From assembly GCF_003334385.1 (NCBI RefSeq), contig NZ_QOWN01000162.1: a DNA stretch of 587 nt; one strand, given 5' to 3'. Made by a program: the position numbers and the translations under genes. Positions 1-587 of this stretch are shown here, one piece after another. Within the stretch, counting starts at the first letter, position 1; every line of letters begins with the position of its first letter. The notes under the pieces were generated by a model. It had not been told where the DNA came from, searched no databases, and was given only the letters and a program-made list of their open reading frames with translations. Origin of the DNA: Escherichia coli (lineage in GTDB: Bacteria; Pseudomonadota; Gammaproteobacteria; Enterobacterales; Enterobacteriaceae).

Positions 1-587
1 GCACTATGCGGATGCCATTCGTTATAATGCTCGAACGCCTCTGCAAGGTTCTTTGCTGCCGTTAACCCGTCTGGTTTGGGCATGACACTGATGTAGTCAC
101 GCTTTATCGTTTTCACGAAGCTCTCTGCTATGCCGTTACTCTCCGGACTCCGCACCGCCGTGTTCTTCGGTTCAAGCCCCAACATCCGGGCAAACTGCCG
201 TGTTTCATTAGCCCGGTAGCATGAACCATTATCCGTCAGCCACTCTACTGGAGACGCCGGAAGCTCGTTGCCGAAGCGGCGTTCCACCGCTCCTGGCATG
301 ACGTCCTGTACTGTTTCACTGTCGAAGCCGCCCGTAGTGACCGCCCAGTACAGTGCCTCACGGTCACAGCAGTCCAGCGCGAACGTGACTCGCAGTTTTT
401 CTCCGTTATCACAGCGGAACTCGAACCCGTCAGAGCACCATCGTTGATTGCTTTCTTTCACGGCCACTTTGCCAGTATATGCCCGCTTCGATGGCGGTAC
501 AGCGGTTTTTCGCTCAAGCAACAGCGCATTCTGGCGCATGATCCGGTAAACACGTTTGGCATTGATCGCAGGCATACCATCAAGTTC
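1..587 (-). CDS. insD: IS2 transposase OrfB (InsD), IS3-family DDE transposase/integrase catalytic domain; internal fragment, truncated at both ends by the window
   Basis: Minus-strand translation starting at position 587 is open for all 195 codons (plus 2 leftover nt at positions 2-1). It reads [196 protein letters not shown]. This matches IS2 InsD as I recall it, and it carries the retroviral-integrase-like W-x-x-D, TDNG and ES motifs. All three plus-strand frames are broken by stops within the first ~100 nt. Confidence 0.95.
1..587 (-). mobile_element. Insertion sequence IS2 (IS3 family), internal portion only; element ends lie outside the window
   Basis: The entire window encodes the IS2 orfB product. 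Because orfB is on the minus strand, the IS2 left end (IRL, insC/orfA, frameshift site) must lie beyond position 587 and the right end (IRR) beyond position 1. No inverted repeats or target-site duplications are visible in the window. Confidence 0.93.
102..431 (-). other. DDE catalytic core of the transposase: D at codon 429-431, D at codon 231-233, E at codon 123-125, conserved K at codon 102-104
   Basis: On the minus strand, plus-strand gtc at 429-431 is GAC (the D in WCSDGFEF), atc at 231-233 is GAT (the D in WLTDNGSCY), and ctc at 123-125 is GAG (the E in NGIAESFVK). There are 35 residues between the second D and the E, and a Lys sits 7 residues after the E (ctt at 102-104 is AAG). This is the IS3-family and retroviral-integrase DD(35)E signature. 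Which residues are catalytic is assigned by analogy to the HIV integrase 'QGVVES' region, not by experiment. Confidence 0.8.

Follow-up and report, generated by a model that had tools for sequence, protein, structure and literature searches.

An IS2 orfB fragment of Escherichia coli with a preserved DDE catalytic core, probably derived from a 5′-truncated element adjoining ISEc38

Does an undamaged transposase core, when met in a short stretch of DNA, belong to an element that can still move? This question is raised by a 587-nt stretch from Escherichia coli (hereafter the window), in which the initial annotation recognized an intact and potentially active transposase catalytic domain. Few insertion sequences have been studied as thoroughly as IS2, which has matches in 4,428 of the 5,426 complete E. 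coli genomes compared (about 80%), often in many copies. The window by itself carries no sign of truncation. Taken together, the comparisons described below indicate that it very probably represents the well-preserved catalytic domain of a 5′-truncated, non-autonomous IS2 remnant.

The catalytic core encoded by the window

Six-frame translation revealed that frame 0 of the minus strand is free of stop codons over all 587 bases, corresponding to 195 codons. Given the base composition (54.7% G+C), the chance of one frame remaining open over this length is ~1.5e-4. The remaining five frames are interrupted, and the internal ORFs listed comprise at most 59 amino acids; those located on the plus strand were considered as genes and rejected as antisense by-products of the coding strand. 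The gene is thus read from the minus strand, which the initial annotation had not specified.

Comparison with IS2A of strain K-12 (insC1/insD1; NC_000913.3 381260-382590) yielded an ungapped match within the same gene and frame, with 562 of 587 bases being identical (95.7%; 25 substitutions and no indels). The encoded proteins differ by 11 amino-acid changes (184/195 residues identical, 94.4%), and the DDE residues together with the Lys are shared. In NCBIfam the best model was ‘IS2 transposase TnpB’ (PRK09409, 3e-133), the score of 444 bits remaining below the 597-bit cut-off for the whole protein, of which the window holds only 195 of 301 residues. Moreover, the NCBIfam model transpos_IS3 was matched with 2.6e-43, and a search of Rfam yielded no RNA family in the window. 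The dN/dS ratio between the window and K-12 IS2 is 0.22 (Nei-Gojobori), suggesting that the divergence from K-12 IS2 was built up under purifying selection. Judged by domain content, catalytic triad and sequence identity, the window is the catalytic domain of an OrfB protein of the IS3 family, IS2 group. Its features are as follows.

1-587, minus strand: internal fragment of IS2 orfB (insD), codons 80-274, corresponding to IS2 nt 652-1238; ungapped match to K-12 IS2A
477-479, minus strand: private His-to-Tyr exchange, InsD H116Y (OrfAB H224Y), with base A479; shared neither by K-12 IS2 nor by either of the 99.5% relatives
144-455, minus strand: Pfam rve integrase core (PF00665), fragment residues 45-148; i-Evalue 2.6e-19, model positions 3-102 of 102
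438-440, minus strand: Trp three residues before D1, InsD W129 (OrfAB W237); Trp in 113 of ~125 family representatives
429-431, minus strand: first catalytic Asp, D1 (GAC), InsD D132 (OrfAB D240), motif RWCSDGF; invariant in the 25-sequence alignment
231-233, minus strand: second catalytic Asp, D2 (GAT), InsD D198 (OrfAB D306), motif WLTDNGS; invariant, aligned on HIV-1 D116
3-179, minus strand: Pfam rve_3 (PF13683), fragment residues 137-195, including the helix of the catalytic Glu; i-Evalue 6.7e-14
123-125, minus strand: catalytic Glu (GAG), InsD E234 (OrfAB E342), motif NGIAESF; at least 90% conserved, aligned on HIV-1 E152
102-104, minus strand: Lys at E+7 (AAG), InsD K241 (OrfAB K349); Lys or Arg in 106 of ~125 representatives, aligned on HIV-1 K159

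The spacing of these residues corresponds to the DD(35)E signature, with 65 residues between D1 and D2, 35 between D2 and the Glu, and the Lys at E+7. The window protein comprises the motifs RWCSDGFEF and WLTDNGSCY and terminates with the letters EWHPHS. The OrfAB numbers D240, D306, E342, K349 and W237 were read off the OrfAB protein (409 aa) of the intact element most closely related to the window. The published IS2 triad consists of D240/D306/E342, and the catalytic site of IS2 OrfAB has been assigned to residues 236-398 (Lewis et al. 2011, PMC3219604). Likewise, W237 of IS2 has been aligned together with D240 on W61/D64 of HIV-1 integrase, and the exchange W237R abolishes IS2 transposition (PMC3219604).

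Conservation of these positions was followed in an alignment of the window with 24 IS2-group proteins, with identities down to 38% (alignment A1). Here, no exchange occurs at D53 or D119, and E155 and K162 are retained in at least 90% of the sequences. Diverged relatives were represented by 50%-cluster representatives, the homologue search otherwise yielding near-identical IS2 proteins only; the pattern for D1, D2, Glu and Lys holds likewise over ~125 of these representatives. When the single window fragment was compared with the PDB sequences by phmmer, no match was obtained, and the family profile was needed. With this profile, which comprises 25 IS2-group proteins, retroviral integrase cores were detected in the PDB at an E value of about 1e-4, and the profile stretch TDNGS...SPeSNGmAESfVKtlK aligns with T115-D116...E152...K159 of HIV-1 integrase. 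The numbering of the latter corresponds to chain 1BIS and to the customary residue numbers of HIV-1 integrase. Correspondingly, of the HIV-1 integrase residues D64/D116/E152/K159, the latter three are aligned with D2, the Glu and the +7 Lys of the window, although the similarity is distant and the N- and C-terminal domains differ.

On the evidence of these alignments, the window encodes an undamaged catalytic core with an RNase-H-like DDE signature, DD(35)E with a Lys at +7. In this respect the initial annotation was accurate: the canonical spacing was reproduced, positions 102-431 being bounded exactly by the Lys codon and the codon of the first Asp. The alignment to InsD and to the rve profile likewise placed the D/D/E residues on the catalytic columns. 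The claim of an intact catalytic domain is further upheld by the open frame, the lack of indels in comparison with IS2, and the dN/dS ratio.

Relatives of the window and the substitutions that distinguish it

Two relatives are 99.5% identical to the window. The first is present in E. coli B771 (contig L001, NZ_CP120557.1; WP_277715403.1, ‘IS3 family transposase, programmed frameshift’). In contrast to the remnant described below, the B771 element is complete, comprising 1,331 bp with both inverted repeats (IRL and IRR), open orfA and orfB frames and a 409-aa OrfAB; its IRR is identical. The second relative, located on plasmid pCFSAN083829_2 (CP070395.1; L003 2408-3087), is a remnant as well, in which IS2 homology stops at nt 652 beside an IS91-family transposase gene. 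In this copy the essential Trp (W237) is exchanged (W129C), whereas the window retains it. The pCFSAN083829_2 copy and an ‘IS2 OrfB pseudogene’ of an Stx2 phage resemble the window in being IS2 orfB fragments cut by other insertion sequences with a still recognizable catalytic region, though the breakpoints differ. Such shortened copies of IS2 are common.

In comparison with both 99.5% relatives and K-12, A479 is the sole private base of the window. It specifies Tyr at InsD 116, where the B771 variant has His. Among ~107 diverged representatives this position is occupied by His in 90 (~84%) and by Tyr in 4, and Tyr is likewise found in 2 of 120 near-identical full-length proteins. According to the literature, OrfAB H224 falls into an interval that is ‘probably disordered’ (207-235). 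The exchange is compatible with relaxed constraint, though not diagnostic, and H116Y was rejected as a decisive mark of decay, since a few relatives and the two near-identical full-length proteins likewise have Tyr. The initial annotation had noted no sign of decay. This holds for positions 102-431, where the frame and all catalytic residues are intact; a caveat is provided by H116Y, which lies just outside at 477-479, a short distance upstream of the catalytic site.

Of the 11 amino-acid exchanges relative to K-12, nine are also present in the complete B771 element, among them H159Y (OrfAB H267) and L177P. An exchange at the former position, H267D, has been described as deleterious in OrfAB (PMC3219604). 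However, H159Y and L177P are also present in many full-length 409-aa proteins in varied combinations. Since they occur in the complete B771 element and in full-length proteins, the nine shared changes represent polymorphisms of the lineage rather than decay.

Full-length 409-aa transposases of IS2 variants (P0001-P0120) display Leu or Pro at position 285, His or Tyr at 267 and Ile or Val at 355 of OrfAB in nearly all combinations. These mixed combinations suggest recombination or gene conversion among IS2 copies.

Truncation of the element and its joint with ISEc38

A 100% match to the window was found neither in the 5,426 complete E. coli genomes nor in PLSDB, where the best match amounts to 99.5%, and the phage collection contained nothing exact, with matches of 95-98% only. 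The base A479 was employed as the diagnostic marker by which carrier contigs were located. The private 30-mer with this base was found neither in the 5,426 complete E. coli genomes or PLSDB nor among the GTDB species representatives or in IMG/VR, and the combination of three private or rare bases has no exact match in the GTDB species representatives. The 30-mer was located in two metagenome contigs only, namely L005 (OAWT01000360.1, 2,886 bp), which is identical to the window at 587/587 bases, and L006 (OAWU01000802.1), which is identical at 586/587 bases. In addition, a chimeric 248-aa product of the locus (see below) is recorded on 21 contigs. Ten of these, stemming from different ENA gut-metagenome samples and the NCBI isolate assembly GCA_016855245.1, were read, and four of the ten hold the exact window. 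In sum, 12 contigs from several gut-metagenome studies and one NCBI assembly were examined: L005, L006 and the ten with the 248-aa product.

In all 12 contigs of the window's lineage the IS2 homology is restricted to nt 607-1331. In intact IS2, nt 1-606 contain the IRL, orfA, the A6G slippery site, which is located at nt 409 in both K-12 IS2 and the B771 element, and InsD codons 1-64. Correspondingly, the IRL is absent in 12/12 contigs, the homology beginning at nt 607, and the loss of nt 1-606 likewise deprives 12/12 contigs of orfA and the frameshift site, whereas K-12 IS2A is complete with 1331 bp. The orfB gene is incomplete in the carrier contigs, lacking codons 1-64 of 301. With respect to the fusion protein, OrfAB residues 1-172 are lost; the remnant keeps residues 173-409 along with the natural stop codon and an intact right inverted repeat, and over 45 nt at its IRR end it agrees fully with the intact relative. 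The B771 element is flanked by a 5-bp target duplication (ACATT), whereas the left end of the remnant, at which such a duplication would be read, is gone. Comparison of the remnant in L005 with the intact B771 element revealed only 4 differences in 725 nt. The truncation is thus most likely recent relative to the mutation rate, which would most likely explain why the catalytic codons are still intact.

At the point of truncation, the end of the ISL3-family element ISEc38 directly abuts IS2 nt 607. The ISEc38 side of the joint ends with ...GTGACAC, the IS2 side reads ACGTATGGTTATCG, and the two homologies share just 2 bp (AC). L005 56-1289 matches the right part of ISEc38, as present in E. coli M8, with 99.2% identity. 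One and the same junction of 63 nt between ISEc38 and IS2 was found in 10/10 contigs read. In L006 the 5′ half of IS2 was not found within 7.6 kb upstream of the remnant, and the sequence beyond the left end of ISEc38 is an IS66-family fragment and not the missing half. Neither the left (ISEc38/IS2) nor the right (IRR/flank) junction occurs in the complete E. coli genomes or PLSDB, and an ancestral intact insertion at this site was not found there. Plasmid NZ_CP060062.1 was considered as the ancestral site and rejected, because its canonical IS2 sits at a different site.

The ISEc38 sequence next to the joint displays further peculiarities. The ISEc38 inverted repeat is separated from the IS2 breakpoint by 22 bp, ACTATTGCACCGTTCGTGACAC (L005 1268-1289; L007 937-958 and 2681-2702; L006 4521). 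The same 22 bp follow ISEc38 on the chromosome and on a plasmid of E. coli M8, where they extend the inverted repeat outwards, though imperfectly. A matching extension on the left side is absent in L006, and the boundary of ISEc38 can be drawn at 1,722 or about 1,766 bp. Moreover, the ISEc38 transposase gene in L006 is interrupted by an IS4-family element of ~1,338 bp (L006 5042-6379). Since ISEc38 positions 533-543 are duplicated on either side of it, representing an 11-bp target duplication, the insertions in L006 are nested.

The window could alternatively be part of a complete, potentially active IS2 whose orfA, frameshift site and inverted repeats lie outside the sequenced stretch. The intact frame and catalytic residues argue for this explanation, as do the completeness of a 99.5% relative, whose annotation includes a programmed frameshift and which has a target duplication at its ends, the 409-aa full-length proteins with 99% identity to the fragment on many contigs, and the abundance of IS2 in E. 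coli. However, the exact window is missing from the complete genomes and PLSDB, its private 30-mer is equally missing from the GTDB representatives and IMG/VR, and all examined contigs with this 30-mer or the exact truncated product are cut at nt 607. We therefore regard a complete element as unlikely. The window is tied to the truncated locus by sequence identity and one private base, which leaves a small residual chance that it originates from an intact copy, as yet unsampled, that contains the same 587 bp.

Given that metagenome contigs may be chimeric at repeats, the joint with ISEc38 could also be an assembly artefact that conceals an intact copy. In line with this notion, the contigs bearing the joint are short, IS-rich assemblies, L017 and L018 end exactly at the IRR of IS2, and the right flank differs in L015, fitting a repeat-induced ambiguity downstream of the element. 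In contrast, the 63-nt joint was obtained identically from independent samples and assemblers, including the NCBI assembly, and the 2 bp shared by ISEc38 and IS2 are too few for a k-mer-driven mis-join. Because the joint recurs in independent assemblies and its partners overlap so little, a mis-assembly is scarcely credible. Thus, a remnant truncated at nt 607 remains the preferred explanation. The suggestion that the transposase is potentially active is not upheld for this copy: when the full element was sought in the carrier contigs, a check that the initial annotation had itself put forward, the IRL, orfA, the slippery site and InsD codons 1-64 proved to be absent, the end of ISEc38 being found in their place.

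The consequences of the truncation can be deduced from the published mechanism. The IS2 transposase is the OrfAB fusion protein, which results from a -1 frameshift at A6G; an H+HTH bundle in its N-terminal part is responsible for binding to the ends, and oligomerization is brought about by a leucine-zipper-like motif (PMC3219604). During transposition one end is cleaved and joined beside the other, resulting in a figure-of-eight and subsequently in a minicircle (PMC3219604). In an active IS2, the DDE core would cleave at the IRR and join it next to the IRL, and the figure-of-eight would give rise to the inserting minicircle. Loss of nt 1-606 has removed the IRL with its promoter, orfA, the A6G site and OrfAB residues 1-172. 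As both the N-terminal half of the transposase and the IRL are missing, we infer from the known biology of IS2 that the remnant can neither encode a functional transposase nor act as a two-ended substrate.

The residual reading frame and its surroundings

In the carrier contigs the orfB frame extends upstream into ISEc38-derived sequence, resulting in an uninterrupted ORF of 248 codons (L005 1255-2001). Its product begins with MRKNHYCTVRD-TYGYRRVW and terminates at the natural stop of orfB. The start codon is TTG; direct reading of the sequence revealed no obvious Shine-Dalgarno sequence in front of it, and a promoter scan yielded no sigma-70-like promoter upstream on the same strand.

Expression of the truncated orfB on its own, with the 248-aa protein being retained as a domesticated or regulatory factor such as a trans-acting modulator of IS2 copies, could explain why the ORF is uninterrupted and why an identical product is recorded on the 21 contigs, which stem from several studies. 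However, the copies differ by just 1-2 nt in 2.4 kb; therefore, the identity of the product reflects recent common descent and not selection. The start region likewise speaks against expression, and the product is devoid of the DNA-binding and oligomerization regions, which renders this possibility very improbable. Equally speculative is the notion that an expressed 248-aa OrfB might, as a stand-alone DDE-domain protein, interfere with or modulate the transposition of intact IS2 copies in the same cell, or that the orphan IRR might still be bound and nicked by OrfAB provided in trans and thereby give rise to local rearrangements in an IS-rich, virulence-type locus.

With regard to the surroundings, the genes beside the IS cluster are arranged in an aap/cexE plus aatPABCD order (L010 2537-7843; L009 3471-4304). 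They encode a dispersin-family protein (PF28204, with GG after the signal peptide), an FtsX-type permease, proteins of 399 and 261 amino acids, an ABC ATPase and an Lnt-like acyltransferase, and a 277-aa AraC-family (HilD/AggR-like) regulator is encoded on the other side of the IS cluster. At the nucleotide level, PLSDB and the 5,426 complete E. coli genomes contain practically nothing that matches this 5.5-kb aap/aat-like cluster (coverage of 4%). In L010 a second IS2 remnant, which is inverted and comprises nt 718-1331, is located at 10196-10809 beside a hexapeptide-repeat gene; it probably accounts for the differing right flank in L015. Downstream of the truncated element, a group II intron reverse transcriptase/maturase gene adjoins an IS3-family fragment (L011 2938-4284; L012 2882-4262), and such a gene is also present near the intact IS2 variant of E. 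coli B771 (L001 5086-5587). Likewise, two E. coli plasmids of bovine origin of ~80 kb each (NZ_CP119745.1 and NZ_CP119739.1) contain 10 separate IS2 matches each, which is unusually high for their size.

Truncated IS copies are routine in IS-rich regions of plasmids and islands, and the remnant described here is an ordinary one of a kind already known. The lesson it holds concerns annotation: an intact DDE core within a short window is no proof of an active element.
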